A stretch of DNA of 64,000 bases from Alphaproteobacteria bacterium (GCA_965248835.1 CBDFLJ010000002.1:1312001-1376000), one strand, 5' to 3'; shown: positions 37,658 to 64,000, numbered from the stretch's first letter. Numbers and translations are program-made. The notes: generated by a model from the sequence alone, not told the origin.

Positions 37658-38602
37658 TCATCCTATCCGTGGGATGATCTCCGCGGCAATCTGCTCGATC
37701 TGCTCCATGTCGAACCGATAGGGCACCAGCGTGATCTGCTGGACGCCGGCATCGAGATGGGCCTGGAGCTGCTCGAGGCAGTCATCGACGGTGCCGAGCA
37801 CCGCGCTTTCGGTGGTCGAATCGCTCCACCCGGCGAAGTCCCATTCGGTGGTCAGCCACTCGTGCATCGGCGCCTGGACCGCCTCGCGCGACTTGCCGAT
37901 ATAGATCGGAAGCTGGTTGATGCTGCGCAGCGTGTCGGGATCCTTGCCCGCCTCCTCGGCGAAGCGCCGGACCTTGCTCCAGGACTTCGTGAAGCCCTGG
38001 GCGGTGTAGTAGTAGGTCAGCCAGCCGTCGCCGACCACGCCGGCGCGCTTGAGCACCCGGTCGACATAGCCGCCGATCAGGATCGGCGGGCGCGGCTTCT
38101 GGACCGGCTTCGGCGACATGACGGCCGAGGAAAGATCGTAAGGCGGGTAGCTGCCGGTCACCGAGTCCTCCTGCCACAGCCGGGTCAGGATCTCGAGGTT
38201 CTGGTCCATGATGTCGCCGCGCTTGTTGAACGGCACGCCGATCGCATCGAACTCGCGCTTGTACCAGCCCGAGGCCATGCCGAGCGTCAGCCGCCCGCCG
38301 GAGATCTGATCGATGCTGGAAAGCTGCTTGGCAAGCACCACCGGGTTGCGCGCCGGCAGCACCAGGATGCCGGTGCCGAGACGGATGCGTTCGGTGCGCG
38401 CAGCGATCGCGGTCAGCACGGACAGCGAATCGAGGATCGGGAAATAAGGATCGACCCCGAGCAGGATGTGGTCCCATGTCCACAGCGATTCGTAGCCGAG
38501 TTCCTCCATGCGGATGCCGAAGTCGATCAGCGCCTTGGCGTTCGGCATGACTGGGGCCGCGGTGAAGTTCTGCATCGCGATGCCGATGATCTTGCTTGCC
38601 AT
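37658..38602 (-). CDS. Luciferase-like (LLM) oxidoreductase, probably F420-dependent (Rv2161c-like)
   Basis: SLWTWDH, AARTERIRLGTGILVLPARNPVVLAKQ..IDQISGGRL, PKPVQKPRPPILIGG. Confidence 0.85.
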   Translation of the reverse strand: MASKIIGIAMQNFTAAPVMPNAKALIDFGIRMEELGYESLWTWDHILLGVDPYFPILDSLSVLTAIAARTERIRLGTGILVLPARNPVVLAKQLSSIDQISGGRLTLGMASGWYKREFDAIGVPFNKRGDIMDQNLEILTRLWQEDSVTGSYPPYDLSSAVMSPKPVQKPRPPILIGGYVDRVLKRAGVVGDGWLTYYYTAQGFTKSWSKVRRFAEEAGKDPDTLRSINQLPIYIGKSREAVQAPMHEWLTTEWDFAGWSDSTTESAVLGTVDDCLEQLQAHLDAGVQQITLVPYRFDMEQIEQIAAEIIPRIG

Positions 38603-49400: not shown

Positions 49401-51797
49401 TCAGTTCTGTGGCGGGCGGAAACGGCGTATGCAGGCCCGGGCCGCGGCATCGAGGATTGCATCGATGTCGATCCTGTAGGTCGCGTAGAGATCCGGGATA
49501 TCGCCGGATTGCCCGAACCGATCCACACCAAGCGGATAGATCCGGTGCCCGGCGACCGAGCCGAGCCAGGAAAGCGCAGCCGGGTGGCCGTCGAGCACGG
49601 TGACGATCGCTGCATCCGGCGACAGACCGCCCAACAGGCGCTCTATATGAGCAGCCGCCAGCGACTGTCCGGCGACGCGGGCCTGGCGCGCCGCGATCCA
49701 TTCGCCGTGCAGGCGGTCGGGCGAGGTGATCGCCAGCAGCCCTGCGCCGGGGATGTCCTCGCGGATCTGTGCGAGCGCAGCCTCGGCCTCCGGCGCAACG
49801 GCGCCCATGTAGGCAAGCGCGATCTCCGTGCCGTCGGGCGGCGCGGCGCCGCGCCAGTACGCGCCCGCGACCGCGCCTTCCCGCCACTCCTCGCCGACGG
49901 CGCGGTCGGGCTGATCGAGTACCCGAGTCGACAGCCTGAGGCAGACCGAACCGCCGTCATCGGCCTGCATATGGTGGAACCCCCATTTCATGATCTCCGC
50001 CAGCTCGTCGACAAAAGCCGGCTCGAAGGCGGCCAGGCCGGCCTGGCCGAGCGTGATCAGGGGAGTCTCCTGTGACTGATGCGCTCCGCCCTCCGGCGCC
50101 AGGGTCACGCCCGAGGGCGTGGCCACGACCATGAACCGGGCATCCTGGTAGCAGGCGTAGTGCAGCGCATCGAGCCCGCGGCGGATGAACGGGTCATAGA
50201 GCGTGCCGATCGGCAGCAGGCGGGTGCCGAAGATCGGCCCGGCGAGGCCGAAGGCGGACAGGGTGAGGAACAGGTTGTTCTCTGCGATGCCCAGTTCGAC
50301 ATGTTGGCCCTGGGGCAGCAGCGACCAGCGCTGGGGTGAAAGGACCTCCTCTTCGGCGAAGACGTCGGATGCGGCTTCGCGGTTGAAGATCCCCCGCCGA
50401 TTGACCCACGCTCCGAGATTGGTCGACACCGTCACGTCGGGTGAGCTGGTGACGATCCGGTCGGCGATTTCGGACTCGCTGCGGGCGATCTCGTTGAGGA
50501 TGCGGCCGAAACCGTCCTGGGTCGAGATCGCCGGACGCTTCGGCGGGTCCAGCGACTCCGGCACCGCGATCGCCGGCGGCGCGTGGCGGCGTCGGCCGCC
50601 GGCCGCGAACGGGACATCCCGAAGAAACTGCTCCAGCACCGCGGCGTCGACATCGAGCCCGGCAAAACGCGACCATTCCTCGTCCTCGCCGATCGCCATC
50701 TCCGCGCGGAAGATGTCCATCTGCTCCGGCGTCATCAGCCCGGCGTGGTTGTCCTTGTGCCCGGCGAACGGCAGACCGAACCCCTTGGTGGTGTAGCAGA
50801 TGAAGCAGGTCGGCCGGTCGTCGGTGACCGCACCGAACGCGGACCGCAGCGCATCCAGGTCGTTGCCGGCAAGGTTGGTCATCAGCGCATGGAGCGCCGC
50901 ATCATCCAGGGATTCGATCAGCCCGTGAACCTCAGGGTCGCCGCCGATGTCGCGGACCAGGCGCTCGCGCCAGCCCGCACCGCCCTTGAAGGTCAGCGCG
51001 GAGTAGAGTGAGTTCGGACAATGGTCGATCCAACGCTTGAGCGCCTCGCCGCCGGGCTCGGCGAAGGCCCGTTCCAGGGCGGTGCCGTATTTCAGCGCCT
51101 CGACCCGCCAGCCCACCGATCGGAACAGCGCGTCGATCCGGCCGAACAGGCGGTCGGAGACCACCGAATCGAGGCTCTGCCGATTGTAATCGACGATCCA
51201 CCAGATGTTGCGGATATCGTGCTTCCAGCTTTCCAGCAGGGCCTCGAAAATATTGCCCTCGTCGAGCTCGGCATCGCCCACCAGCGCGATCATCCGGCCG
51301 CACCGGTCGTCGTCGAGCAGGCCCTTCAGCGCCAGATAGTCCTGCACCAGGGCCGCGAAGACGGTCTGCGCCGCACCAAGACCGACCGAGCCGGTCGAGA
51401 AATCGACGTCGTCGTCGTCCTTGCTCCGCGAGGGATAAGCCTGCGCCCCGCCCAGGCTGCGGAACCGCTCCAGCCGCTCCCTGCTCTCGTTGCCCAGCAG
51501 GTACTGGATGGCATGGAACAGGGGCGCGGCGTGCGGCTTGACCGCCACCCGGTCTTCGGGTCGCAGGATGTCGAAATAGAGCGCCGTCATGATCGAGGCC
51601 ATCGAGGCGCAAGACGCCTGGTGGCCGCCCACCTTCAGGCCGTCACGCCTGGGCCGAATGTGGTTGGCATGATGGATCATCCACGAAGATAGCCACAGCA
51701 CTTTGCGTTCGAGCGCGGCCAGGCAGGCACGGTGATGCGCCTCCGTATCGGCCTCGATCGGGCCAGGATCGGCAATGTCGTGGACGTTCGATGCCAT
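49401..51797 (-). CDS. Homodimeric-type 2-oxoacid dehydrogenase E1-like / transketolase-fold TPP enzyme (AceE/MdeB-like)
   Basis: KVGGHQASCAS, FSTGSVGLG, TPP motif GDAELDEGN..NRQSLD, ELGIAE, EGGAHQS; start chosen at MASNVHD. Confidence 0.88.
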   Translation of the reverse strand: MASNVHDIADPGPIEADTEAHHRACLAALERKVLWLSSWMIHHANHIRPRRDGLKVGGHQASCASMASIMTALYFDILRPEDRVAVKPHAAPLFHAIQYLLGNESRERLERFRSLGGAQAYPSRSKDDDDVDFSTGSVGLGAAQTVFAALVQDYLALKGLLDDDRCGRMIALVGDAELDEGNIFEALLESWKHDIRNIWWIVDYNRQSLDSVVSDRLFGRIDALFRSVGWRVEALKYGTALERAFAEPGGEALKRWIDHCPNSLYSALTFKGGAGWRERLVRDIGGDPEVHGLIESLDDAALHALMTNLAGNDLDALRSAFGAVTDDRPTCFICYTTKGFGLPFAGHKDNHAGLMTPEQMDIFRAEMAIGEDEEWSRFAGLDVDAAVLEQFLRDVPFAAGGRRRHAPPAIAVPESLDPPKRPAISTQDGFGRILNEIARSESEIADRIVTSSPDVTVSTNLGAWVNRRGIFNREAASDVFAEEEVLSPQRWSLLPQGQHVELGIAENNLFLTLSAFGLAGPIFGTRLLPIGTLYDPFIRRGLDALHYACYQDARFMVVATPSGVTLAPEGGAHQSQETPLITLGQAGLAAFEPAFVDELAEIMKWGFHHMQADDGGSVCLRLSTRVLDQPDRAVGEEWREGAVAGAYWRGAAPPDGTEIALAYMGAVAPEAEAALAQIREDIPGAGLLAITSPDRLHGEWIAARQARVAGQSLAAAHIERLLGGLSPDAAIVTVLDGHPAALSWLGSVAGHRIYPLGVDRFGQSGDIPDLYATYRIDIDAILDAAARACIRRFRPPQN

Positions 51798-51933
51798 GGG
51801 TCCATCCCGAGACGGGCGCGCTATGGAAATCATACGAACGTGAACGAAGATTTATCTTGCCATTTTGCGCTCGCTCTCCACAATTTTAGCAATGATCGTT
51901 CAAAATTTGATAACTTTTGGAGTGTTTCTGCCA
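51798..51933. promoter_or_regulatory. AT-rich divergent control region between the E1-like gene and lrp
   Basis: Conspicuously AT-rich (CAAAATTTGATAACTTTTG) in a GC-rich window; typical of an Lrp-bound region. Confidence 0.5.
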
Positions 51934-53341: not shown

Positions 53342-54013
53342 ATGTATGTCGAGCACCGGACCTATTCGATCACGCCCGGCCGGGTCGGCGATTATCTGGC
53401 CGGCTACGGCCCCAAGGGCTATCCGATCCAGAAACGCTACCTGGGCGATTGCTGCATCGGCTCCTACGTCACCGAGATCGGCACCATCCAGGAGATCACG
53501 ATGATGTGGCGCTTCGATTCGCTCGACCAGCGGATGGAGCGCAAGGCCGCCAACGACCGCGATCTGGACTGGCAGCGGCTGATGGCCGACGGGCTGACCC
53601 CGTTCGTCGACCGGGTGGTCACCAAGGTGGTCGTCCCGGCCCCGTTCTGGCAAGACACCGCGGTCGACGGTTCACGCTACCCGTATGTCGAACAGCGCAC
53701 CTATGCGGTCAAACCGGGCCGGGTCGGCGCCTATCTTGCAGCCTATGGCGAGCGCGGCTTCGCGCTGCAGCGGCGCCACTTCGAGGACGCGAGCCTCGGT
53801 GTGTGGACCTCCGAGGTCGGCACCATCCAGGAGGTGACGATGTTCTGGGGCTTCGGCTCGCTCGATGAGCGGATGGAGCGCCGGCGGGCCAACGACGCCG
53901 ATCCCGAATGGGCCGAGCTCAACCGCGACGTGCTGGCGCCCAATATCGAGCGCGTCGTGACCAAGGTGATGTCGCCCACCCCCTATTGGGTGGCTGACCG
54001 GGCGGTGCCATAG
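53342..54013 (+). CDS. NIPSNAP-family protein with two tandem domains
   Basis: Two repeats of YVE.RTY...PGRV..YL..YG...EIGT.QE.T..W.F.SLD.RMER; GGAGG RBS. Confidence 0.85.
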   Translation: MYVEHRTYSITPGRVGDYLAGYGPKGYPIQKRYLGDCCIGSYVTEIGTIQEITMMWRFDSLDQRMERKAANDRDLDWQRLMADGLTPFVDRVVTKVVVPAPFWQDTAVDGSRYPYVEQRTYAVKPGRVGAYLAAYGERGFALQRRHFEDASLGVWTSEVGTIQEVTMFWGFGSLDERMERRRANDADPEWAELNRDVLAPNIERVVTKVMSPTPYWVADRAVP

Positions 54014-55473
54014 AGCAAGCTCCGCAAGACCGACGGGATCAGCCCCGGCAGGTCGTCCGCCACAAGCCCGGGACCAAAAGCAGCCGCGGCCTCGCCGTGG
54101 ATCCAGGCCGCGGCACATCCGGCATCGAACGGGCCGAGCCCCTGCGCCATCAGCCCCGTCGCGATCCCCGCCAGCACGTCGCCGGCACCGGCGGTGGCAA
54201 GGCTCGGCGGCGCATTGACGTTGACCGCCACCCGGCCGTCGGGGGCCGTGATGACCGTGTCGCTCCCCTTCAGGAGGACCGCCGAGCCCGAAACGGCGGC
54301 CGCCGAACGCGCCCTGGCGAGTTTGTCGCCGGAGGCCTCGAACAGGCGGGAGAACTCGCCCTCGTGCGGGGTCATCAGCACCGGCACGCCGGCGATGGCC
54401 GCGAACAGCGCCGCCGGGTCGCCGGCGAAGACGCTGAGCGCATCGGCATCCAGCACCAGGGGTTTTCCGGTGCCTGCGGCGCTCAGGACCGTTCGGCGGG
54501 TCGCCTCGCCCAACCCGGCGCCCGGCCCGATCAGCGCCGCATCCCGCCTGCGGTCGGCAAGATAGGCCGCGAGATCGCCCGGGGCCGCCGCCGGCACAAC
54601 CAGCAGGCTTGCCATGTCGGCCGCGTAGATCGGCACCGCCTCGGGCGGGCAGACCACGCTGGTCAATCCGGCCCCGATCCGCATAGCCGCGCGCGCGGCA
54701 AGCCGGGCCGCCCCGGTCATCGTCCCGCCGCCGGCGATCACCGCATGCCCGCGGCTGTATTTCTGATCGCCCGGCCGCGGCCAGCGCAGCGCGGAGCGCC
54801 ACAGCGCCGGGCCGTTCTCCCACGCCTTCGGCCGGATCTCATCGAGGACGTTCCCGGGAATGCCGATGTCGGCGCAATGGATCTCGCCCATGAGCGCGCG
54901 GCCGGGCATCAGCACGTGGCCGGGCTTCTTGCGGAAAAACGTTACCGTCATCATCGCTTCGGCAGCGGCACCGAGGATCGCCCCGCTATTGCCGTCGACG
55001 CCCGAGGGGACATCGACGGCGACGCAAGGGATGGCCGCACCGGCCAGCGCCTCGATCACCGCGCGTGCGGCGCCGTCGACCTCTCGCACCAGACCGGCAC
55101 CGAAGATCGCATCGACGGCAAGCCTCGCCCCGGCCAGCGCCGCGGGGCTGAGCGGGACGATCGGCCCGGTCCAGCGCCCGGCGTTGAGCGCGGCATCGCC
55201 CTTCAGCGCCGCCCGCTCGCCGAGCAGCGCCACGGTGACCGGCCAGCCGTGCTCGGCCAGCAGGCGGGCGATCACGAAACCGTCGCCGCCATTGTTGCCG
55301 GGCCCGCACAGAATCGCCGTCGGGCGCGGGTCCCAGCGGGCCCGGATGCGATCGGCGACCGCACGGCCGGCGGCCTCCATCAGCGCCTCGCCCGGAATGC
55401 CCGCCGCGATCGCCGCGCGATCGGCGGCATACATCTCATCGACGCTCAGCAACGCCAACTCGTCGCACATCAC
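53983..55473 (-). CDS. nnr: Bifunctional NAD(P)H-hydrate epimerase/dehydratase (YjeF)
   Basis: LMEAAG, CGPGNNGGDG, DVPSG, KYSRG, DADAL, TPHEGE, LATAGAGDVLAG. Confidence 0.95.
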   Translation of the reverse strand: MMCDELALLSVDEMYAADRAAIAAGIPGEALMEAAGRAVADRIRARWDPRPTAILCGPGNNGGDGFVIARLLAEHGWPVTVALLGERAALKGDAALNAGRWTGPIVPLSPAALAGARLAVDAIFGAGLVREVDGAARAVIEALAGAAIPCVAVDVPSGVDGNSGAILGAAAEAMMTVTFFRKKPGHVLMPGRALMGEIHCADIGIPGNVLDEIRPKAWENGPALWRSALRWPRPGDQKYSRGHAVIAGGGTMTGAARLAARAAMRIGAGLTSVVCPPEAVPIYAADMASLLVVPAAAPGDLAAYLADRRRDAALIGPGAGLGEATRRTVLSAAGTGKPLVLDADALSVFAGDPAALFAAIAGVPVLMTPHEGEFSRLFEASGDKLARARSAAAVSGSAVLLKGSDTVITAPDGRVAVNVNAPPSLATAGAGDVLAGIATGLMAQGLGPFDAGCAAAWIHGEAAAAFGPGLVADDLPGLIPSVLRSLLYGTARSATQ

Positions 55474-55516
55474 GCCGATCTCCGGTGGCGGCCGCCGCGG
55501 TGGGGTTTCAACCCCT

Positions 55517-56212
55517 TCAGGCTGCGGAATTGCGCCGCTCGCGTGCCTCGAGCTCGGCGATCACCTCTTCGAGGCCCATCACGTCGGCGTATTTGTGGTG
55601 CAGGTCGAACAGGCTGATCTTGTGGATCAAATCGGCCCGGTCGTAGACGCATTCCTCGACCACGGTGGCGTGATAGCCGTTCGAATAGGCATCCACGGTC
55701 GAGGCGCGGACGCAGCCCGAGGTGCTCTCGCCGCAGATGATGAGGCTGTCGATCCCTCGCCGGGTGAGCTGGGCGACCAAGGGCGTGCCGTAGAACGCGC
55801 TGGCGCGCTCCTTCTCGATCACCAGGTCGCCGGGCTCCGGCGCGAAGGCCTCATGGATTGCATAGTCGTCGTCGCGGCCCTGGCCGATCTGCCGGTTGGT
55901 GGCGACGACGCTGCCATCCTTCTGCGCGGCGGTGGTGTAGACCACCGGCAAGCCCGCCATGCGGGCGGCCGCAAACAGCCGCCGGGTCGGCTCGATCGCC
56001 GTCCAGGCGTTGACCCCGCACGCGCTGGGATGGCGGTCGATCAGTTCGATCACCGGCTCGCTGCCGCCGCGATAGGCGAGGTTATAGAGGTCGATCGCCA
56101 GCAGCGCCGGGGACCGCCCGACATGGACGTCGCGCCGGTAGGCGGCATAGATCCTGAGCACGTCCTCGGGAATGACATCGCGCCAGCAATGGTCTTCGAA
56201 ATCACGCGCCAT
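55517..56212 (-). CDS. Isochorismatase-family cysteine hydrolase (NicF / N-carbamoylsarcosine amidase-like)
   Basis: Start ATG at 56212; D-K-C triad in AIDLY, EKERASAF and GESTSGCVRAS. Confidence 0.88.
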   Translation of the reverse strand: MARDFEDHCWRDVIPEDVLRIYAAYRRDVHVGRSPALLAIDLYNLAYRGGSEPVIELIDRHPSACGVNAWTAIEPTRRLFAAARMAGLPVVYTTAAQKDGSVVATNRQIGQGRDDDYAIHEAFAPEPGDLVIEKERASAFYGTPLVAQLTRRGIDSLIICGESTSGCVRASTVDAYSNGYHATVVEECVYDRADLIHKISLFDLHHKYADVMGLEEVIAELEARERRNSAA

Positions 56213-56334
56213 CCTTCGGTCTCCCTCAACCGGAGTGCTGCCATGGGCCAGTTTCCCAGATCCGCCCGCGTTGGTCGAGCGCAGCCCTTGCGCGGCCGGC
56301 CGGTTTCGCGATAGGCCAGACCGGCAGGGAGGAG

Positions 56335-57510
56335 ATGATGACGACGGCAATCGAGAACATCGAGGTCATCCACGTCGCGCTGCCGACCCGGCGCGAGCAC
56401 AAGTGGGCCGGCCTGACCGAGCCGATCGGCGGCTATGTCCTGGTCAAGATGACCGGCGCAAACGGCGTGACGGGATGGGGCGAAGCGCCGGCGCTGAAGG
56501 ATTGGGGCGGCGACTTCGGCCGATATTTCGGCGAATCGCCGGCCACGACCCGGCTCGTCGTCGAGCGCTATCTGGCGCCGGTCGTGATCGGGCTCGACCC
56601 GGCCCAGCCGGTGGCCCTCCACCGGGCGATGGATGCGATGATCAAGGGCTACCCCTACGCCAAGGCGGCGGTCGAGATGGCGGCCTACGATCTGGCCGGG
56701 CGCACGCTGGGTGTGCCGGTCCATGTGCTGTTGGGCGGGCTGGTGCGCGCAACGGTCCCGATCACCCATTCGATCGGGCTGCTGGATATCGAGCAAGCGG
56801 TCCAGGAGTGCCGCAAGGTCACCGCCGAGGGTATCCGGACCATCAAGATCAAAGTCGGGATCGATCCCGAGCGCGACGTCGAGATCGTCCGCCGAGTCCG
56901 CGAGGCCGTCGGTCCGGCTACCGATTTGTGCGCGGATGCGAACCAGGGCTATCGGACCCCGCATGAAGCGATCCGCACCATCCGCGCGATGGAGCCGGAA
57001 AGGCTGATCTACGCCGAGCAGCCGGTCGAGGGGATCGACCGCATGGCCGAGGTCGCCCGCGGCGTCGGTGTGCCCCTGATGGCCGACGAGAGCGCCTGGA
57101 ACGCCCGCGACGTCTTCGAGATCGCCGAGCGGCGGGCTGCGGAGATCGTCTCGATCTATGCCACCAAGCCCGGCGGGCTCTACCGTGCGATGCAGGTCGC
57201 CGCCGTCGCCAAGGCGGCAGGGTTGATCTGCAACGTCAACGGCTCGGTCGAGACCGGGATCGGCAATCTCGCCAACATTCACCTCGCAGCCGCTGCCGAA
57301 CCGGTGAGCCTGAGCTGCGTTGTGCCGATCTCCACCCCGGCCGGGCACCGCACCGACCAGGTCGGCGGGATCTACTACACCGACGACCTGATCGCCGCCC
57401 CGTTCACGGTCAGGGATGGCGCGGTCGTCGTGCCGACCGGCCCCGGCATGGGTATCGACGTCGACCCGGAGAAGATTGAACGCTACCGGGTGCGCGAGGA
57501 GCGCCCATGA
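56335..57510 (+). CDS. Enolase superfamily enzyme, MLE subgroup
   Basis: GWGE, KIKVG, metal ligands DAN / EQP / DES, PTGPGMG. Confidence 0.9.
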   Translation: MMTTAIENIEVIHVALPTRREHKWAGLTEPIGGYVLVKMTGANGVTGWGEAPALKDWGGDFGRYFGESPATTRLVVERYLAPVVIGLDPAQPVALHRAMDAMIKGYPYAKAAVEMAAYDLAGRTLGVPVHVLLGGLVRATVPITHSIGLLDIEQAVQECRKVTAEGIRTIKIKVGIDPERDVEIVRRVREAVGPATDLCADANQGYRTPHEAIRTIRAMEPERLIYAEQPVEGIDRMAEVARGVGVPLMADESAWNARDVFEIAERRAAEIVSIYATKPGGLYRAMQVAAVAKAAGLICNVNGSVETGIGNLANIHLAAAAEPVSLSCVVPISTPAGHRTDQVGGIYYTDDLIAAPFTVRDGAVVVPTGPGMGIDVDPEKIERYRVREERP

Positions 57511-57531
57511 CGCCGTGTGCGTTGCACCCGA

Positions 57532-58668
57532 ATGACACGGGAAACTTGGATGCGCGCGGAGATCGTTAGACGCCTGACGGAAGCGATGAGCCCGGCTGGG
57601 CTCGACGCGGTGATCGCCGTCTCGCCGGAGAACTTCGCCTACATCGCCGGGTTCGTCGTCCCCTCCCAGCCGTTGATGCGCTGGCGCCACGCGATGGCGA
57701 TCCTGACGGCAAGCGGCGCCGGATCGATTGTCTGCGTGGACATGGAAGAGACCACGGTCACCGGCCACGCGGACGGCGTGCCGGTCCGCGCCTGGGGCGA
57801 GTTCACCGACGATGCGATGGCGGTGCTGGCCGATGAGCTCCAGCGCCTGGGGCTCGGCACGGCGCGGATCGGGATCGAGCTCGACTATCTGCCGGCGCGC
57901 GACTTCGGCAAGCTCGATGCGGCCCTGCCCAACGCGCGGTTTGCCACGATCGATGCCATGCTGGATGAGATGCGCCAGCGCAAGACCGACGACGAGATCA
58001 CCCTGTTGCGCCGGCTGTCGCGAATCGCCGACAAGGCGATCGGCGATGCCTTCGCCGCGGTCTCTCCGGGCGATACCGAGATGGACATCGCCGCCGCGCT
58101 GACCCGCAGCGTCTACGCGCAGGGGGCGGAGCAGTTCCGCCTGATGATCGTCGCCACCGGCGAGCGCAGCCAGCTTCCCAATGTCGGGCCCACGGAGCGG
58201 GTGTTAGAGCCGGGCGATGTCTGCCGGGTCGAAATCTTCCCGATGATCGGCGGCTATCATGCCGGCGTCTGCCGCACCGCCGTGGTCGGCGCGCCGCCCG
58301 AGGGCGCCGAGCGGATCTGGCGAAATCTGGTCTCGTGCAAGCACATGCTGATGGAGATGATCTGCCCCGGTGCGGCCGCGCGGGCGATCTACGACGCCTT
58401 CCTAGGCCGCTTCGGCGAGCTCGGCCTGCCGCCGATCGCCTTCGTCGGCCACGGCATCGGCTTGCACCTGCACGAGGCGCCGTACCTCGCCGCGCACGAA
58501 ACCGCCAGCCTCGCGCCCGGCATGGTTCTGGGGGTCGAGCCCCTGGTCTACCGGACCGGCCTCGGATACGGCATGCAGCTCAAGGACATGATCGCAGTGA
58601 CCGAGGACGGCCCGGCCGACCTGCTGTCTGATGCGACGGACAACGACAGCCTGATCGTGGTCGAATAA
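57532..58668 (+). CDS. M24 (pita-bread fold) family protein with an atypical metal site
   Basis: Creatinase/prolidase-type N-domain, RQRKTDDEI, GHGIGLHLHE, VEP. Confidence 0.85.
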   Translation: MTRETWMRAEIVRRLTEAMSPAGLDAVIAVSPENFAYIAGFVVPSQPLMRWRHAMAILTASGAGSIVCVDMEETTVTGHADGVPVRAWGEFTDDAMAVLADELQRLGLGTARIGIELDYLPARDFGKLDAALPNARFATIDAMLDEMRQRKTDDEITLLRRLSRIADKAIGDAFAAVSPGDTEMDIAAALTRSVYAQGAEQFRLMIVATGERSQLPNVGPTERVLEPGDVCRVEIFPMIGGYHAGVCRTAVVGAPPEGAERIWRNLVSCKHMLMEMICPGAAARAIYDAFLGRFGELGLPPIAFVGHGIGLHLHEAPYLAAHETASLAPGMVLGVEPLVYRTGLGYGMQLKDMIAVTEDGPADLLSDATDNDSLIVVE

Positions 58669-58705
58669 GCTCGGGGACGCATTCAGCGGCGCGGCAGCGC
58701 ACTGA

Positions 58706-59692
58706 TCAGGTCGAGCGGACCAGATCGAGCGCTGCCCGCTCGCCGGCCGCATCGCCGACAACCAGCAGGACCGGCTCGTCGATTCCAGCCTCTTGATAGG
58801 CGGCGATGCGCTGCCGGCACGCCTCGGCCGGTCCGCACACGCCGAACGCCTCGACCGCGTCGTCGGGGATAAGCGATGCGGCCTGGTCCATGTCGCGGCG
58901 GGCGATCGCGGCCTTGACCGCGTCACGGTCGACGGAGATGCCCGATGCAGCCACGCTTTCGGCGACGAAATCGTTGCGCATCATGAAGGCGATCTTGGGC
59001 CTCAGCCGGTCGAGCGCGGCGCGGCGGTCCTCATCGACCGCGGTGTAGAGATAGCCCGCGCGGCGGATCCGCGCCGGGTCGCGGCCCGCGCGCACGGCCC
59101 CCTCGGCAACCCGGGCGAGCGAGAGCGCGGCATGTTCGACCGTCAGCCCGGCCGACAGCACCACCCCGTCGGCCCGCTCGCCGGTCAGGCGGAGCATCAT
59201 CGGTCCCATCGCCGCGACATAGATCGGGATCGGCTCGGCCGGACGGAAGGCCATCCGCATACCGGCCAGGCGAAAGACCTCGCCCTCGTAGGTCCCGCCC
59301 TCGCCGGACCAGAGCCGGCGCAGGCAGTCGATGAACTCGCCCATCGCGCGCAACGGATTTTCGAGCTTCGCTCCGGCTTCGGCGAGGAACATCGGGTTGC
59401 CCGAGCCCAGCGCGATCGCCGCCCGGCCCGGGGCGGCCTCGGCGATGGTCGCCATCGCCATCGCGACCGGGACGGGGTGCCAAAGATACGGGCTGATCGC
59501 CGTCGGGATGACCGTCGCGCGCTCGGTCGACAATGCGAAGGCGGTGCACGAGACCATAGACTGGCGGTAGCCCAGATGCTCGGCCATCCACAGGTTCCGC
59601 ACCCCGGCCGCCTCGGCGCGGCGGGCGAGCGCCAGCGCGTCCTGGAAGGTCGCGAACCCGTCGAAGCTCACCCCGAATGCCGGCGCGTTCAC
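58706..59692 (-). CDS. LLM-family oxidoreductase, Mer-like, probably F420-dependent
   Basis: LWMAEH, HPV..AMA.AT, GRAAIALGSG, IPIYVAAMGPMMLRLTGERADG. Confidence 0.85.
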   Translation of the reverse strand: MNAPAFGVSFDGFATFQDALALARRAEAAGVRNLWMAEHLGYRQSMVSCTAFALSTERATVIPTAISPYLWHPVPVAMAMATIAEAAPGRAAIALGSGNPMFLAEAGAKLENPLRAMGEFIDCLRRLWSGEGGTYEGEVFRLAGMRMAFRPAEPIPIYVAAMGPMMLRLTGERADGVVLSAGLTVEHAALSLARVAEGAVRAGRDPARIRRAGYLYTAVDEDRRAALDRLRPKIAFMMRNDFVAESVAASGISVDRDAVKAAIARRDMDQAASLIPDDAVEAFGVCGPAEACRQRIAAYQEAGIDEPVLLVVGDAAGERAALDLVRST

Positions 59693-60798
59693 CGCCCCTC
59701 CCCCTCGGTCACCAGGCGGTGCAGCGCGGCCGACTCCAGGCCGGCGATGCCCATGCGTTCCAGGCTTAGCCCGGTTGCGGCGTAGTCAATGCCGGTCGCC
59801 GCCGATAGCAGAGCGATGTGAGCATCGATCGTCGGTGTCGGAACGCCGGCCAGCCTGCCGAATGCCGCGATCGGCACCAGGCCGTAGCCGACATCCTCAT
59901 GGACATAGCGATGGTCGAGCGAGGACGGGCTGCGCAGCGTCGCGTTGGGTGCGCTTTCGCGACACGCGCGGGCGACCGAACCGCTGTCGGCGGCCTCTCT
60001 CGTCGTCAACCCGGCGTTGAAGAAAATCTCAAGGAACGGCTTCGCAGGCACGCCAAGCGCTTGGGCGACCGCCATGCGTTCGGCGTCGATCGCGCCGACC
60101 ACGCGGCCGACCGCCTCGGTCATCCCTTCCTTGTAGAACAGGAAATCACCGTCGGTGTCCTCGATCCAGCCGGCATTCATCAGCATGCCCGGCGGGTGAA
60201 AGATCGCGTTGATGTTGGCAAGTCCGGTCTCGAGCACGCTGGAGGCTGCCCGGATTTCCGGGAACAGCGGCTGCACCTCGGCGTGCAGCCGGGCGGTGGC
60301 GCTGCCCGGCAGGGCCGCGAACATGAGCCGCTTGGTGTAGGAATAGATCCCCACCGTCGCCGGTCCTTCCATCCGGGCGATATAGGTCAACGTGACCGTC
60401 TCGCAGGTCTCGAGCGGCGCGGTGTGACCTGCGCGGCGGAGTTCCGTGCGGAAATGGAGGCCGCCCCCGGTATGGCCCGGATCGAGGAAGACCGGCACGC
60501 CCGGCGCCAGCACGCCCGCCAGGGCTTCGGCGTAGTAGGCATGCGCCACCGCGGGGACGACCAGCATCACCAGGTCGGCGCCATCGACAGCCGCCGCGAC
60601 ATCGGTGGTCAGCAACGCCGGCATCCCGGTGCCCTCGAAGATGCCGCGCGCGGTGATCCCGCCGTGCGCGCGGATCGGGGCCAGGCGCTCCTCGCTCCTG
60701 GCATGCAGCCGGACCTCGAAGCCGCGGCGGGTCAGGTCCGCCGCCGCGGCATGGCCCCCATGACCCGCCCCCAGTACCGCGACCGATGTGATAGCCAT
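59689..60798 (-). CDS. NAD(P)-dependent opine (octopine/nopaline) dehydrogenase family protein
   Basis: GAGHGG Rossmann motif, LANINAIFHPPG, FLFY.EG, D.ER, HRYVHEDVGYGL. Confidence 0.9.
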   Translation of the reverse strand: MAITSVAVLGAGHGGHAAAADLTRRGFEVRLHARSEERLAPIRAHGGITARGIFEGTGMPALLTTDVAAAVDGADLVMLVVPAVAHAYYAEALAGVLAPGVPVFLDPGHTGGGLHFRTELRRAGHTAPLETCETVTLTYIARMEGPATVGIYSYTKRLMFAALPGSATARLHAEVQPLFPEIRAASSVLETGLANINAIFHPPGMLMNAGWIEDTDGDFLFYKEGMTEAVGRVVGAIDAERMAVAQALGVPAKPFLEIFFNAGLTTREAADSGSVARACRESAPNATLRSPSSLDHRYVHEDVGYGLVPIAAFGRLAGVPTPTIDAHIALLSAATGIDYAATGLSLERMGIAGLESAALHRLVTEGEGR

Positions 60799-60927
60799 CG
60801 CCTCCCCCGCCTGGCTGCGGATTTCGCGCGGCGATCTTGATCGGACCGGCCCGAACGGGCAAGACGTGACACCGGTGCCCGTTTGCGGCTATGTCCTGGG
60901 CAGGAACGCGAGGAGGCGATAAGGACG

Positions 60928-63282
60928 ATGAGGCGCGGACTGCCAGAGAGAGCGCGCTTGCGCACGCGGTTGCTCGAGACCTCGGTGGAGGCGTTGTGCG
61001 CCGAGGCTGCGGAAATCCGCGATGCCGGTCACGGCGAGGTCATCACCTGGTCACGCAAGGTGTTCATCCCGCTGACCCGGCTGTGCCGCGATGTCTGCCA
61101 CTACTGCACCTTTGCCGCCCCGCCGAAGAAAGGGGTCGACGCCTATCTGAGCGCGGAAGAGGTTCTGGCGATCGCACGCGCCGGTGCTGCGGCCGGCTGC
61201 AAGGAGGCGCTGTTCACGCTGGGCGACAAGCCCGAGCTGCGCTATCGCGCCGCGCGCGAGGCGCTGGCGGAGCTCGGCTTCGCCACCACCATCGATTATC
61301 TCGTCCATGCCGCGCGCCTGGTCTTCGAAGAAACCGGACTGCTGCCGCACGCCAACCCGGGCGTCCTCGGCGCCGGGGACGTGGCTGCCTTGCGCCCGGT
61401 CTCGGTCTCGCAGGGGTTGATGCTGGAGAGTCTCTCGCCCCGGCTCGCCGCGCGCGGGATGGCCCATCACGGCTCGCCCGACAAACGTCCCGCAGCGCGG
61501 CTTGCGACCCTCCGCCACGCCGGTGCGCAGTCTGTCCCATTCACCACCGGGATTCTCATCGGCATCGGCGAGACCCGCGGCGAACGGCTGGACGACCTGT
61601 TCACCATCGCCGACCTGCACGCGCGCTACGGTCACGTCCAGGAAGTGATCGTCCAGAACTTCCGCGCCAAGCCCGGCACCAGGATGGAAGCGGCGCCGGA
61701 GCCGGACATCGACGACCTCGCCTGGACGATCGCCGCGGCCCGGATCGTGCTGGGTCCGACCATGAACATCCAGGCCCCGCCCAACCTCAGCGCCGAAAGC
61801 TGGCCCGACCTGATCGATGCCGGGCTCAACGACTGGGGCGGGATCTCTCCGGTGACGCCCGACCACGTCAACCCGGAGGCGCCGTGGCCGCAGATTCCGG
61901 CACTGGCCACGGGCACCGCCGCCAAGGGAAAGGTCCTGGTAGAGCGGCTCGCGGTCTATCCCGAATATGCCCGCGAGCCCGGACGCTGGCTCGATGCCGC
62001 CCTGGCACCGGCGGTGCTGCGGATGAGCGATGCCGAAGGAAGGGCGCGCGAGGACGCGTGGGCGCCGGGCATGCCGGACGCGCTTCCGGTCCTGCCGGCG
62101 GCGGCGCTCAGGACATCGCCCGGGATCGCGCGCATCCTGGACCGCGCTGGCGACGGCGCCCGGCTCGAGGTCGGTGAGATCGCTGCGTTGTTCGGCGTGC
62201 GCGAAGGCGGCTTCACCGCGGTCTGCGAGGCCGCCGACGACCTGCGGCGAAGCGCCGTCGGCGATCGCGTCACCTACGTGGTCAACCGCAACATCAACTA
62301 CACCAATATCTGTTCCTACGCCTGCCGCTTCTGCGCCTTCTCCAAGGGCCGCGCGAGCGCCGGGCTGCGCGGGACGCCTTACGACCTGGGTCTGGACGAG
62401 ATCAGCCGGCGAGTGGCCGAGGCCTGGGACCGCGGCGCGACCGAGGTGTGCCTGCAAGGCGGCATCCATCCCGACTACACGGGCGAGACCTATCTCGCGA
62501 TCACCCGCGCCGTGAAGGAGGCCGCACCCGACATCCATGTCCATGCTTTCTCGCCCCTGGAGATCAGTCAGGGTGCGGCAAGCCTCGGGCTCGGCGTCGC
62601 TGACTTTCTCGAACGCCTGATCGAGGCCGGGCTCGGCTCGCTGCCGGGCACGGCGGCGGAGATCCTCGATCCACCGATCCGTAAGATCCTCTGTCCCGAC
62701 AAGGTCACGACCGCGCAATGGCTGTCGGTCATCGGGACGGCGCATCGTCTTGGTCTGCGCACCACCGCAACGATCATGTTCGGCAGCGTCGAGGGTCCGG
62801 AGTCCTGGGCCCGGCATCTCAACCACGTCCGCGACTTGCAGGCGGAGACCGGCGGCTTCACCGAGTTCGTCCCGCTGCCCTTCGTCCACATGGAGGCGCC
62901 GATCTACCTGCGCGGTCAGGCGCGCAAGGGGCCGACCTGGCGCGAAGCCGTGTTGATGCACGCCGTTGCCCGGCTCGCGCTCAACCCGCTGATCGACAAC
63001 ATCCAGACCTCCTGGGTCAAGATGGGGCGCAACGGCGCTGCGGCGTGCCTCGATGCCGGGGTCAACGACCTGGGCGGCACGCTGATGAACGAAAGCATTT
63101 CGCGCGCGGCCGGCACCACCCACGGCCAGGAGCTGCCGCCGGCGGAGATCGAAGCCCTCGCCCGCTCCGCCGGCCGGCACGCCGCTCAGCGCTCGACGCT
63201 CTACGGCCCGGTCGATGAACGGCGGACGGCCGCCTCGTACCAGGCAGGGCCGCTTGCGCCCATAATGACCGCGGCACAATGA
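60928..63282 (+). CDS. fbiC: Bifunctional FO synthase CofG-CofH
   Basis: Two radical-SAM motifs, SRKVFIPLTRLCRDVCHYC and NRNINYTNICSYACRFC; DHVNPEAPWP, PGTAAEIL, NIQTSWVK. Confidence 0.95.
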   Translation: MRRGLPERARLRTRLLETSVEALCAEAAEIRDAGHGEVITWSRKVFIPLTRLCRDVCHYCTFAAPPKKGVDAYLSAEEVLAIARAGAAAGCKEALFTLGDKPELRYRAAREALAELGFATTIDYLVHAARLVFEETGLLPHANPGVLGAGDVAALRPVSVSQGLMLESLSPRLAARGMAHHGSPDKRPAARLATLRHAGAQSVPFTTGILIGIGETRGERLDDLFTIADLHARYGHVQEVIVQNFRAKPGTRMEAAPEPDIDDLAWTIAAARIVLGPTMNIQAPPNLSAESWPDLIDAGLNDWGGISPVTPDHVNPEAPWPQIPALATGTAAKGKVLVERLAVYPEYAREPGRWLDAALAPAVLRMSDAEGRAREDAWAPGMPDALPVLPAAALRTSPGIARILDRAGDGARLEVGEIAALFGVREGGFTAVCEAADDLRRSAVGDRVTYVVNRNINYTNICSYACRFCAFSKGRASAGLRGTPYDLGLDEISRRVAEAWDRGATEVCLQGGIHPDYTGETYLAITRAVKEAAPDIHVHAFSPLEISQGAASLGLGVADFLERLIEAGLGSLPGTAAEILDPPIRKILCPDKVTTAQWLSVIGTAHRLGLRTTATIMFGSVEGPESWARHLNHVRDLQAETGGFTEFVPLPFVHMEAPIYLRGQARKGPTWREAVLMHAVARLALNPLIDNIQTSWVKMGRNGAAACLDAGVNDLGGTLMNESISRAAGTTHGQELPPAEIEALARSAGRHAAQRSTLYGPVDERRTAASYQAGPLAPIMTAAQ

Positions 63283-63953
63283 ACGGGCCGCTGCCGGTCA
63301 TCGCGATCGTCGGCGGCACCGGTGCCGAGGGCACGGGCCTGGCGGTGCGCTGGGCGCGCGCCGGCTATCGGGTGGTGATCGGCTCGCGTTCGGCCGACCG
63401 TGCCGCCGAGACCGCCGCCGGGCTCGCCAGACACGGCAGTGTCGAGGGCGCGGCCAACGCCGATGCGGCGGCGGCGGCGGACATTGTCGTGGTCACCGTC
63501 CCCTACGCCGCACAGCGGCCGACCCTGGAGGACATCAAGCACGCGCTGGCCGGCAAGATCGTCGTCGATGTGACCGTCCCGCTGGTGCCGCCGCGCGTCG
63601 CGCGGGTGCAGCTCCCCGAGGAGGGATCGGCCGCGCTGATCGCCCGGTCGATCCTGGGCAAGGATGTCCGCCTGGTCTCCGCCTTCCAGAACGTCGCCGC
63701 CGACCACCTGGCCGATCCGAGCCACGAGACCGATTGCGACGTTTTGGTGTGCGGCGACGACAGGGAAGCGCGCGCCGAGGTGGTGCGGTTGATCGAGGCC
63801 ACGGGGCTGCGCGGGCTGGAGGCCGGCCCGCTGGACAACGCCGTCGCCGCCGAGGCGCTGACCTCGGTGCTGATCTGGATGAACCGGCGCTACAAGTCGC
63901 CGGGTGCGGGTATCCGGATCACCGGGCTGCCCGGTGAGGACGCGGCCGATTGA
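63279..63953 (+). CDS. npdG: NADPH-dependent F420 reductase (Fno)
   Basis: GGTGAEG..LAVRW, IGSR, VTVPY, EGSAA, SAFQNV, MNRRYK..GAGIRITG; ATGA overlap with fbiC. Confidence 0.93.
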   Translation: MNGPLPVIAIVGGTGAEGTGLAVRWARAGYRVVIGSRSADRAAETAAGLARHGSVEGAANADAAAAADIVVVTVPYAAQRPTLEDIKHALAGKIVVDVTVPLVPPRVARVQLPEEGSAALIARSILGKDVRLVSAFQNVAADHLADPSHETDCDVLVCGDDREARAEVVRLIEATGLRGLEAGPLDNAVAAEALTSVLIWMNRRYKSPGAGIRITGLPGEDAAD

Positions 63954-64000
63954 CCCGCGGCTCGCCGCGGCTCGTGATCTCCGCGCCGTCCGGTATCGGC
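63950..64000 (+). CDS. 5' end of the next gene, possibly F420-0:gamma-glutamyl ligase (CofE); truncated by the window
   Basis: TTG overlaps the npdG stop. The frame reads MTRGSPRLVISAPSGIG, resembling the CofE N-terminus that precedes PGDDL. Only 17 codons are visible. Confidence 0.4.
   Translation, partial: MTRGSPRLVISAPSGIG

Follow-up and report, generated by a model that had tools for sequence, protein, structure and literature searches.

An opine dehydrogenase and a Mer-like oxidoreductase encoded beside the F420 biosynthesis operon of an alphaproteobacterium: a candidate F420-dependent catabolic module

The function of cofactor F420 in organisms other than methanogens and Actinobacteria is not settled. 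In a 2021 review, no F420-dependent enzyme is said to have been studied in Proteobacteria, and the trace amounts of F420 in two Alphaproteobacteria are taken to point to a niche-specific role (PMC8498797). What, then, is F420 used for in such organisms? The question is raised in concrete form by the final 8.5 kb of a 64,000-nucleotide stretch (hereafter the window) from the genome of an Alphaproteobacteria bacterium (GCA_965248835.1, CBDFLJ010000002.1:1312001-1376000; G000:C2:1312001-1376000 in our numbering), in which open reading frame (ORF) calls, Pfam and NCBIfam identify seven genes. Here the F420 biosynthesis genes fbiC and npdG lie back to back with a gene for an opine dehydrogenase (OpDH; Octopine_DH family), which is coupled to a gene for a luciferase-like monooxygenase family (LLM) oxidoreductase resembling Mer. 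This pair faces the genes for an enolase-superfamily protein of the muconate lactonising enzyme (MLE) type and for an M24-fold protein, and these four genes are referred to below as the module.

We consider it probable that the module is one functional unit, namely an F420-dependent set of enzymes that uses an imported nitrogen-containing carboxylic acid and is tied to the supply of F420. It provides a concrete and testable candidate for an F420 role, connects a defined group of enzymes with the F420 biosynthesis operon both physically and in phylogeny, and brings to light two subfamilies with conserved unusual active sites, a Lys/Tyr enolase-superfamily protein and an M24 protein devoid of the dinuclear site.

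Conservation of the module and its link to F420 biosynthesis

A gene-neighbourhood comparison, the check put forward with the first-pass annotation of the window, places the homologs together in many other genomes and phyla. Eighteen stretches around LLM matches in related genomes were compared. All twelve stretches around LLM orthologs (58-90% identity) contain the OpDH, LLM, M24 and MLE genes, with fbiC inside eleven of them and just outside the twelfth; the six stretches around LLM paralogs comprise two with the full set, one with a second OpDH and three with the LLM only. A scan for OpDH with one genome per GTDB species returned 116 relatives, from which 79 loci were kept. The nearest belong to metagenome-assembled genomes (MAGs) of Defluviicoccus; others come from Rhodoplanes, Pseudolabrys, further Alphaproteobacteria and two Burkholderiales MAGs, and beyond Proteobacteria the gene is found in Nitrospinota, Binatia, Chloroflexota, Methylomirabilota and Pseudonocardia. 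Rhodoplanes elegans, R. roseus, R. azumiensis and Pseudonocardia bannensis are cultured holders, so that the role of F420 is directly testable. Neighbours of OpDH were counted by tblastn (E <= 1e-10, half of the query covered), chance being taken from random 21-kb windows of the own genome (Table 1), and the clustering of the module genes is far above chance.

Table 1. Genes found near OpDH in the loci kept from the species-level scan
Gene	All loci	Loci with >=5 kb on both sides	Chance
LLM	65/79	52/58	3.8%
M24	61/79	48/58	2.5%
MLE	47/79	39/58	1.3%
fbiC	28/79	22/58	0.4%
Isochorismatase	8/79	8/58	3.8%
PuuE-like gene	8/79	8/58	5.8%

Gene order and orientation vary between lineages and membership is kept. 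A co-directional MLE-M24-OpDH-LLM operon is present in six loci (L066, L092, L099 and the three Binatia loci L112, L113 and L115), Rhodoplanes azumiensis has a compact OpDH-LLM-TctC-TctB-TctA-TctC unit, and L046, L049 and L051-L054 carry two OpDH and two LLM genes, the latter in tandem. The conserved core is OpDH with a Mer-type LLM, usually joined by the M24 and MLE genes.

The F420 side of the locus was found to be complete. FbiC scores 1132.7 bits against the NF006687 cut-off of 1018, with both the CofG and CofH domain models above cut-off, and NpdG/Fno scores 208.8 bits against 149.8 for TIGR01915. The cofE gene, which had been thought only probable at this position, follows npdG, and cofE, cofD and cofC are contiguous, just past the window end, all three above cut-off (CofE 256 bits against 180.65, CofD 297 against 257.45 and CofC 143.3 against 105). 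The full F420 pathway is thus encoded in one operon, and the alternative of a pathway that stops at FO was not seen. CofE of this genome is a stand-alone protein of 254 amino acids. Since no member of the Fgd or FDOR-B families at or above cut-off was found in the own genome, its recognisable F420 enzymes are Fno and the Mer-like LLMs; a search of the same genome for DDN/FDOR-A (PF04075) gave no match, but the control likewise matched nowhere.

Adjacency of the module to this operon extends to other lineages. In about 15 of their loci fbiC is divergent from OpDH at a distance of 77-330 bp. On an OpDH tree of 76 rows (4 of 80 were dropped as short or interrupted matches), cof adjacency was scored in 58, the flanks of the other 18 being too short. 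The 32 rows with cof adjacency and the 26 without it are distributed such that adjacency occurs in three clades; the tree calls for no fewer than five changes, and well-supported branches force three of these. The 26 loci without adjacency are ones with at least 8 kb of flank and no cof gene. Among the 43 genomes in which no cof gene adjoins the OpDH locus, 39 have cofE elsewhere, 36 copies being intact and above cut-off and three broken. A class-wide sample has cofE above cut-off in 42 of 301 genomes, and the OpDH ortholog occurs in two of the 301, the own genome and one other, both of which have cofE. The broken copies (split or with an in-frame stop) belong to the related MAGs G051, G059 and G060 (loci L074, L084 and L085), which form one clade and hold OpDH alone, without LLM, M24 or MLE. 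This combination of a broken cofE with an isolated OpDH may represent the joint decay of cofactor and module.

As a separate observation, a gene for an AMP-binding, acyl-CoA synthetase-like protein of about 560 amino acids, which is not in the window, is located between fbiC and OpDH in 12 loci of one genus-level, Defluviicoccus-like group (L039-L044, L048, L050, L093 and L104 among them).

The module enzymes and their active sites

OpDH is assigned by PF02317 (E=7.6e-45, 153 bits against a Pfam cut-off of 30) and has an N-terminal Rossmann domain with a GAGHGG motif. Its closest PDB entry is N-(1-D-carboxyethyl)-L-norvaline dehydrogenase (CENDH) of Arthrobacter (1bg6), aligned over the full length with E=1.9e-58. 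His201, Arg297 and Asp302 of OpDH align to the catalytic His202, Arg292 and Asp297 of CENDH, whose positions were checked on the alignment; the triad is invariant in 26 OpDH orthologs. CENDH is, to our knowledge, a stand-alone enzyme, and we know of no F420 partner for it. The OpDH and LLM genes overlap by 4 nt, the OpDH stop codon and the LLM start codon being merged in GTGA, and a strong ribosome-binding site, GGGGGAGGGG, precedes this overlap, in agreement with the translational coupling ascribed to the pair at first reading. The OpDH matches of three relatives had been flagged as containing one internal TGA, a suspicion that was dismissed because this TGA is the natural stop codon of a 366-amino-acid protein.

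The LLM (PF00296) has F420-class LLM families as all of its top 14 NCBIfam matches. Mer is the best of them, with 171.9 bits against a cut-off of 276 for PRK02271 (E=2e-50) and 156.1 against 348.7 for TIGR03555; the first FMN-class family in the match list appears at E=1.1e-16. Mer (1z69, 1.5e-40) is also the closest PDB entry, ahead of fHMAD, Adf and FGD. The same family is the best NCBIfam match of all 13 LLMs examined at distant OpDH loci, which are 28-56% identical to the own LLM, and the LLM scores of 146-205 bits stay under the Mer cut-offs of 276 and 349. The sequence comparisons therefore uphold the early designation of the LLM as Mer-like; it is an F420-class enzyme whose use of F420 is predicted. 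Mer itself, the F420-dependent methylene-tetrahydromethanopterin reductase, reduces an iminium or aminal carbon next to a nitrogen. According to Mascotti 2021 (PMC8518648), Mer defines the 'reductase' type A of F420 LLMs, this type includes a ketoreductase and a dehydroalanine reductase, and a separate F420 LLM type reduces alkylproline cyclic imines.

Two further observations concern LLM genes of the own genome. A second locus (L034, G000:C2:971900-991800) encodes an OpDH (44% identical) and a Mer-like LLM (52%) together with two molybdenum (Mo) hydroxylases with FAD and 2Fe-2S subunits, a glyoxalase-fold gene, a DAO-family oxidase and a short-chain dehydrogenase/reductase, a gene set that suggests a related route for an N-heterocycle. 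Upstream of the module in the window, a weak LLM-family match lies at about 38009-38536 on the minus strand (34 bits to the Fgd model).

Altered catalytic residues had been proposed for both the M24 and the MLE enzyme, and in both cases the alteration turned out to be conserved. The M24 protein combines a pita-bread domain (PF00557, 129.9 bits) with a creatinase/prolidase N domain (PF01321, 58 bits). In the alignment to 1pv9, the metal ligands D209, D220, H284, E313 and E327 of Pyrococcus (Pfu) prolidase, which land on the expected residues, correspond to E239, G250, H312, E341 and K356, so that three of the five dinuclear metal ligands are lost. Among 69 homologs encoded beside OpDH loci, the pattern N-E-(G/A)-H-E-K is present in all 43 with at least 53% identity; the rest of the set comprises 15 paralogs with N-E-N-H-E-E, seven canonical N-D-D-H-E-E proteins and four with other patterns. 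The ortholog profile sits between prolidases (4.5e-47), creatinase (1chm, 3.8e-32) and the ectoine hydrolase DoeA (6twk, 1.2e-23). The M24 protein shares the two-domain fold of creatinase and DoeA, is closer to prolidases than to either, and departs from the canonical dinuclear site, the N-E-G-H-E-K set having been compared residue by residue with prolidase only. A protein Atlas look-up placed the M24 protein in generic M24 clusters only.

The MLE-type protein retains the KxK motif (K171 and K173) and the metal ligands D201, E228 and D251 in the alignment to 3i4k, 2p88 and 3ct2. It shares these features with MLE-subgroup enzymes such as muconate cycloisomerase, N-succinylamino acid racemase, dipeptide epimerase and cis-3-hydroxy-L-proline dehydratase. 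In contrast to them, the strand-6 Lys that serves as the second acid/base of the subgroup, Lys273 in the MLE of P. putida, is replaced by Tyr275. All 48 homologs, with identities of 43-100%, share the whole pattern of KxK, metal ligands and Tyr. All family scores are under cut-off, the best match being TIGR02534 (muconate/chloromuconate cycloisomerase; 245.1 bits against 334.95) and the second best the hydroxyproline dehydratase family NF043002.

Proposed function and competing explanations

The genes that recur around the module point to uptake and breakdown. Binding-protein-dependent importers lie beside it, either of the PAAT ABC type (own genome, L092 and L099), of the tripartite tricarboxylate transporter (TTT) type, with TctC in 17 loci, or of the TRAP type, and GntR/FCD regulators occur there as well. 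Imino acids or cyclic nitrogen compounds are the targets of a further group of proteins encoded repeatedly around the module: Mo-hydroxylases (14 loci), ornithine cyclodeaminase (OCD)/mu-crystallin proteins, hydantoinase B/oxoprolinase, an AtzD/TrzD ring-opening amidohydrolase, a D-glutamate-cyclase-like protein, an M20 amidohydrolase and amine oxidases; the PuuE-like gene fits the same theme. These accessory genes differ by lineage and do not narrow the substrate.

Within a single catabolic unit, Fno would charge F420 with a hydride from NADPH, and the LLM, given its resemblance to reductase-type enzymes (Mer, fPKR and LxmJ), would pass this hydride to a C=N or an activated C=C bond of the substrate or of an intermediate. 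With NAD(P)(H), OpDH would act on the secondary amine or 2-imino acid next to that bond, by reduction or by oxidative cleavage. The MLE-type enzyme, with its Lys/Tyr pair, may carry out alpha-proton chemistry at the carboxylate, either an epimerisation or a beta-elimination to an enamine or imine, and the M24 protein, with no dinuclear metal centre, may hydrolyse the C-N bond of an amide or amidine. Most likely the substrate falls into one of two classes, the first comprising cyclic imino acids and N-heterocyclic 2-carboxylates and the second N-carboxyalkyl amino acids of the opine type; the cyclic class is slightly favoured. A more specific proposal, speculative and to be given a low probability, is a reductive route, driven by F420H2 and made up of OpDH and the Mer-type LLM, that leads from unsaturated or heteroaromatic N-heterocyclic 2-carboxylates to ordinary imino and amino acids. 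Hydrides would be placed on the ring by the LLM, or by both LLMs in the tandem versions, in the manner of the picrate pathway, and OpDH would then reduce the cyclic 2-imino acid, with pyrrole-2-carboxylate, picolinate, dipicolinate and their lactams as candidate substrates. If true, ring reduction of this sort would be new among catabolic routes, and F420 would gain its first assigned physiological role in Proteobacteria.

The nearest described system is the npd cluster of Rhodococcus for picrate and 2,4-dinitrophenol, which Heiss is said to have reported in 2002 and which reportedly encodes NpdG together with the F420-dependent hydride transferases NpdI and NpdC. Like the module, it has an NpdG-family NADPH:F420 reductase encoded with Mer-like LLM hydride transferases, and the relatives with tandem LLM genes parallel its two hydride transferases. 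Unlike the npd cluster, the module has OpDH, an MLE-type enolase and an M24-fold hydrolase as partners, is attached to a whole F420 biosynthesis operon, occurs mainly in Proteobacteria and contains no nitroaromatic-specific genes. The Ti-plasmid occ/noc regions of Agrobacterium have in common with it a PAAT 'HEQRo' importer and, in some loci, an OCD-family gene; they rely on FAD opine oxidases and arginase, in contrast to the NAD(P) OpDH, F420-class LLM, M24-fold and enolase-superfamily proteins found here. As a kind, an F420-dependent catabolic cluster is already known, and it is the gene combination that was not found described: a search of full-text literature, with subscription journals outside its reach, returned no paper on it. 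In the 2021 review, a figure legend has luciferase-like hydride transferase (LLHT) genes drawn next to F420 genes and the word 'opine' is absent (PMC8498797).

Several points weigh against a dedicated F420-dependent unit. Every enzymatic step proposed for it is drawn from family resemblance, and the LLM reaches no curated family cut-off, which makes it Mer-like rather than Mer and places it in no named F420 family. The differences in accessory genes between lineages imply that versions of the module may act on different substrates. The neighbour counts come from related genomes that are not independent, so that they overstate the number of independent events and are not probabilities. Within the own order, fbiC is present in 39 of 41 genomes and OpDH orthologs in 28 of 41; as fbiC is near-universal there regardless of OpDH, co-occurrence within the order says little, and F420 must have other uses there too. 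The module is also rare at class level, with an OpDH ortholog in one of 300 other genomes when the six best candidates per genome are scored, and hence gives no account of F420 in Alphaproteobacteria at large. Finally, cofE, cofH and npdG were not found in G058 (2.3 Mb), G062, G069 and G077, the last three being module-bearing MAGs with full-length Mer-like LLMs. Because the cof genes are gathered in one operon, a single unbinned contig could explain their absence; alternatively, the module may work without home-made F420.

The same enzymes could be read as a catabolic route for an acyclic opine (N-carboxyalkyl amino acid), perhaps arginine-derived, in the manner of occ/noc. The PAAT system would import the opine, the M24 protein would remove an amidino group, the MLE-type enzyme would epimerise a stereocentre, OpDH would cleave the opine to a keto acid and an amino acid, and the LLM would merely dispose of one of these. 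This is unlikely, though by no means negligible, in view of the kinship of OpDH with CENDH and its intact His/Arg/Asp triad, of an own importer that belongs to the His/Glu/Gln/Arg/opine permease family with a binding protein nearest the Lys/Arg/Orn type, of the OCD genes that adjoin the module in L073 and L112 (and that occur in occ/noc regions as well), and of the creatinase match of the M24 profile. Such a route would not require F420, although no gene accompanies OpDH more constantly than the LLM; many loci carry TTT or TRAP carboxylate importers instead of a PAAT ABC system, and in Rhodoplanes OpDH and LLM are found without M24 or MLE genes. It is likewise conceivable, albeit improbable, that the module is biosynthetic and makes an opine-type product (a metallophore or osmolyte) or contributes to F420 biosynthesis itself, for instance by reducing dehydro-F420-0 where CofE lacks a nitroreductase domain. 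The thermodynamics of the OpDH family favour synthesis, three clades have OpDH and fbiC back to back, CofE occurs in the own genome as a stand-alone protein, and the choice between phosphoenolpyruvate and 2-phospholactate as the substrate of Gram-negative CofC (e.g. that of P. denitrificans) is described as unsettled in one paper (PMC8764529). OpDH or the LLM was considered as the missing dehydro-F420-0 reductase and ranked low. Against this, the cof genes frequently lie at a distance from the module, as in the 26 loci mentioned above, and the module occurs in Pseudonocardia; its flanks contain binding-protein-dependent importers and GntR/FCD regulators, not exporters or synthetases; F420 synthesis offers no step for the M24 and MLE partners; and in family f5 F420 genes are present in four of five genomes searched and OpDH in none of the five.

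The remaining explanations deny a functional link altogether. The LLM might be a flavin (FMN) enzyme whose nearness to the cof operon is inherited synteny, a reading that draws on its position under every curated F420 family cut-off and on the three or four module-bearing MAGs that show no F420 genes. We regard it as quite improbable, since the best FMN-class family (E=1.1e-16) trails Mer (2e-50) and the top 14 matches are all F420-class, the 13 distant partner LLMs are Mer-like without exception, 39 of 43 module genomes have cofE as against 42 of 301 in the class sample, and cof adjacency is seen in three clades. Neighbourhood by descent only, with no common pathway, would suit the many loci that come from related Alphaproteobacteria. 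This is highly improbable when membership is kept through changes of order and orientation, from co-directional operons in some phyla to the divergent and convergent arrangement here, when Binatia, Nitrospinota, Chloroflexota and Actinomycetota have the same set with identities of 28-60%, and when OpDH and LLM are translationally coupled.

Layout of the locus and lineage-specific neighbours

All the genes named in the first-pass annotation were recovered in their places (Table 2; a window coordinate equals the coordinate in locus L007 plus 54999). The gap of about 130 bp across which the fbiC operon was said to diverge from OpDH-LLM measures 129 bp with the most likely FbiC start. The OpDH-LLM pair does converge on the MLE and M24 genes, as described; the gene order implied by that description was wrong, in that MLE comes first, beside the isochorismatase gene, and it is M24 that converges on LLM.

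Table 2. Features in the final part of the window
Feature	Position	Strand	Remarks
Isochorismatase-family hydrolase gene	55517..56212	-	About 231 aa from ATG 56212; ORF open to 56350; accessory/uncertain member
Divergent intergenic region, isochorismatase gene/MLE-type gene	56213..56334		122 bp
Enolase-superfamily MR/MLE-type gene	56335..57510	+	PF13378, PF02746
M24/creatinase-N gene	57517..58668	+	PF00557, PF01321; likely start ATG 57550
Mer-like LLM (LLHT) oxidoreductase gene	58706..59692	-	PF00296
Opine dehydrogenase (OpDH; Octopine_DH family) gene	59689..60798	-	PF02317
Divergent control region, OpDH/fbiC	60799..60927		129 bp
fbiC (fused CofG-CofH, FO synthase)	60928..63282	+	ORF open from TTG 60883; likely start ATG 60928; NF006687
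npdG/fno (NADPH-dependent F420 reductase)	63279..63953	+	TIGR01915
cofE, 5' end	63950..64000	+	Gene runs past window end

The isochorismatase-family hydrolase, whose likely start lies behind the ribosome-binding site GAGGGAGA, is recognised by its Pfam domain only (PF00857, E=2e-30, 106.6 bits). RutB, PRK11440 and BiuH are its best NCBIfam matches and remain far under cut-off (RutB 60 bits against 378, BiuH 44 against 370); among the amidase families RutB, BiuH, CSHase and PncA, no equivalog cut-off was reached. It accompanies the module only in near families (8 of 58 loci). In relatives it is invariably followed by the Nnr gene (bifunctional NAD(P)HX epimerase/dehydratase), which is located at 53983-55473 on the minus strand of the window, and the two may form an NAD-related unit outside the module. 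The initial interpretation, which joined four types of C-N enzyme in one route, is only partly supported. It is largely right and was overstated for the isochorismatase, because this gene joins the module only in the near family and pairs more stably with Nnr.

Past the window end, cofC is followed in the own genome by a PAAT ('HEQRo') ABC importer, with a binding protein closest to the Lys/Arg/Orn type, and then by a polysaccharide-deacetylase-fold gene that is closest to the allantoinase PuuE (174.9 bits against the TIGR03212 cut-off of 424.6). This insertion of the importer between cofC and the PuuE-like gene (L007:11327-15647, window-equivalent 66326-70646) is confined to the own genome, and in relatives the PuuE-like gene comes directly after cofC. 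Importers about 80% identical to it adjoin the OpDH-LLM genes of L092 and L099, two distant loci whose enzymes show just 46-65% identity, a disparity that hints at transfer of the importer together with the module. The ABC importer, like the PuuE-like and isochorismatase-like hydrolases, is a lineage-specific addition.

Elsewhere in the window, an 810-amino-acid protein resembling transketolase and pyruvate dehydrogenase E1 is encoded at 49401-51833 on the minus strand, far under all equivalog cut-offs (aceE 159 bits against 860). Regarding non-coding elements, no sigma-70-like site was found in the 122-bp intergenic region between the isochorismatase and MLE genes, and a promoter and terminator scan gave nothing usable; an Rfam scan of 55000-64000 returned just two sub-threshold snoRNA-like chance matches, none of them in the OpDH-fbiC gap. 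The 129-bp gap itself is kept within the genus, with 89% mean column identity across three genomes. An inverted repeat, GGGCA...TGCCC, lies within this conserved intergenic region at 60860-60885 and could be an operator or a hairpin.

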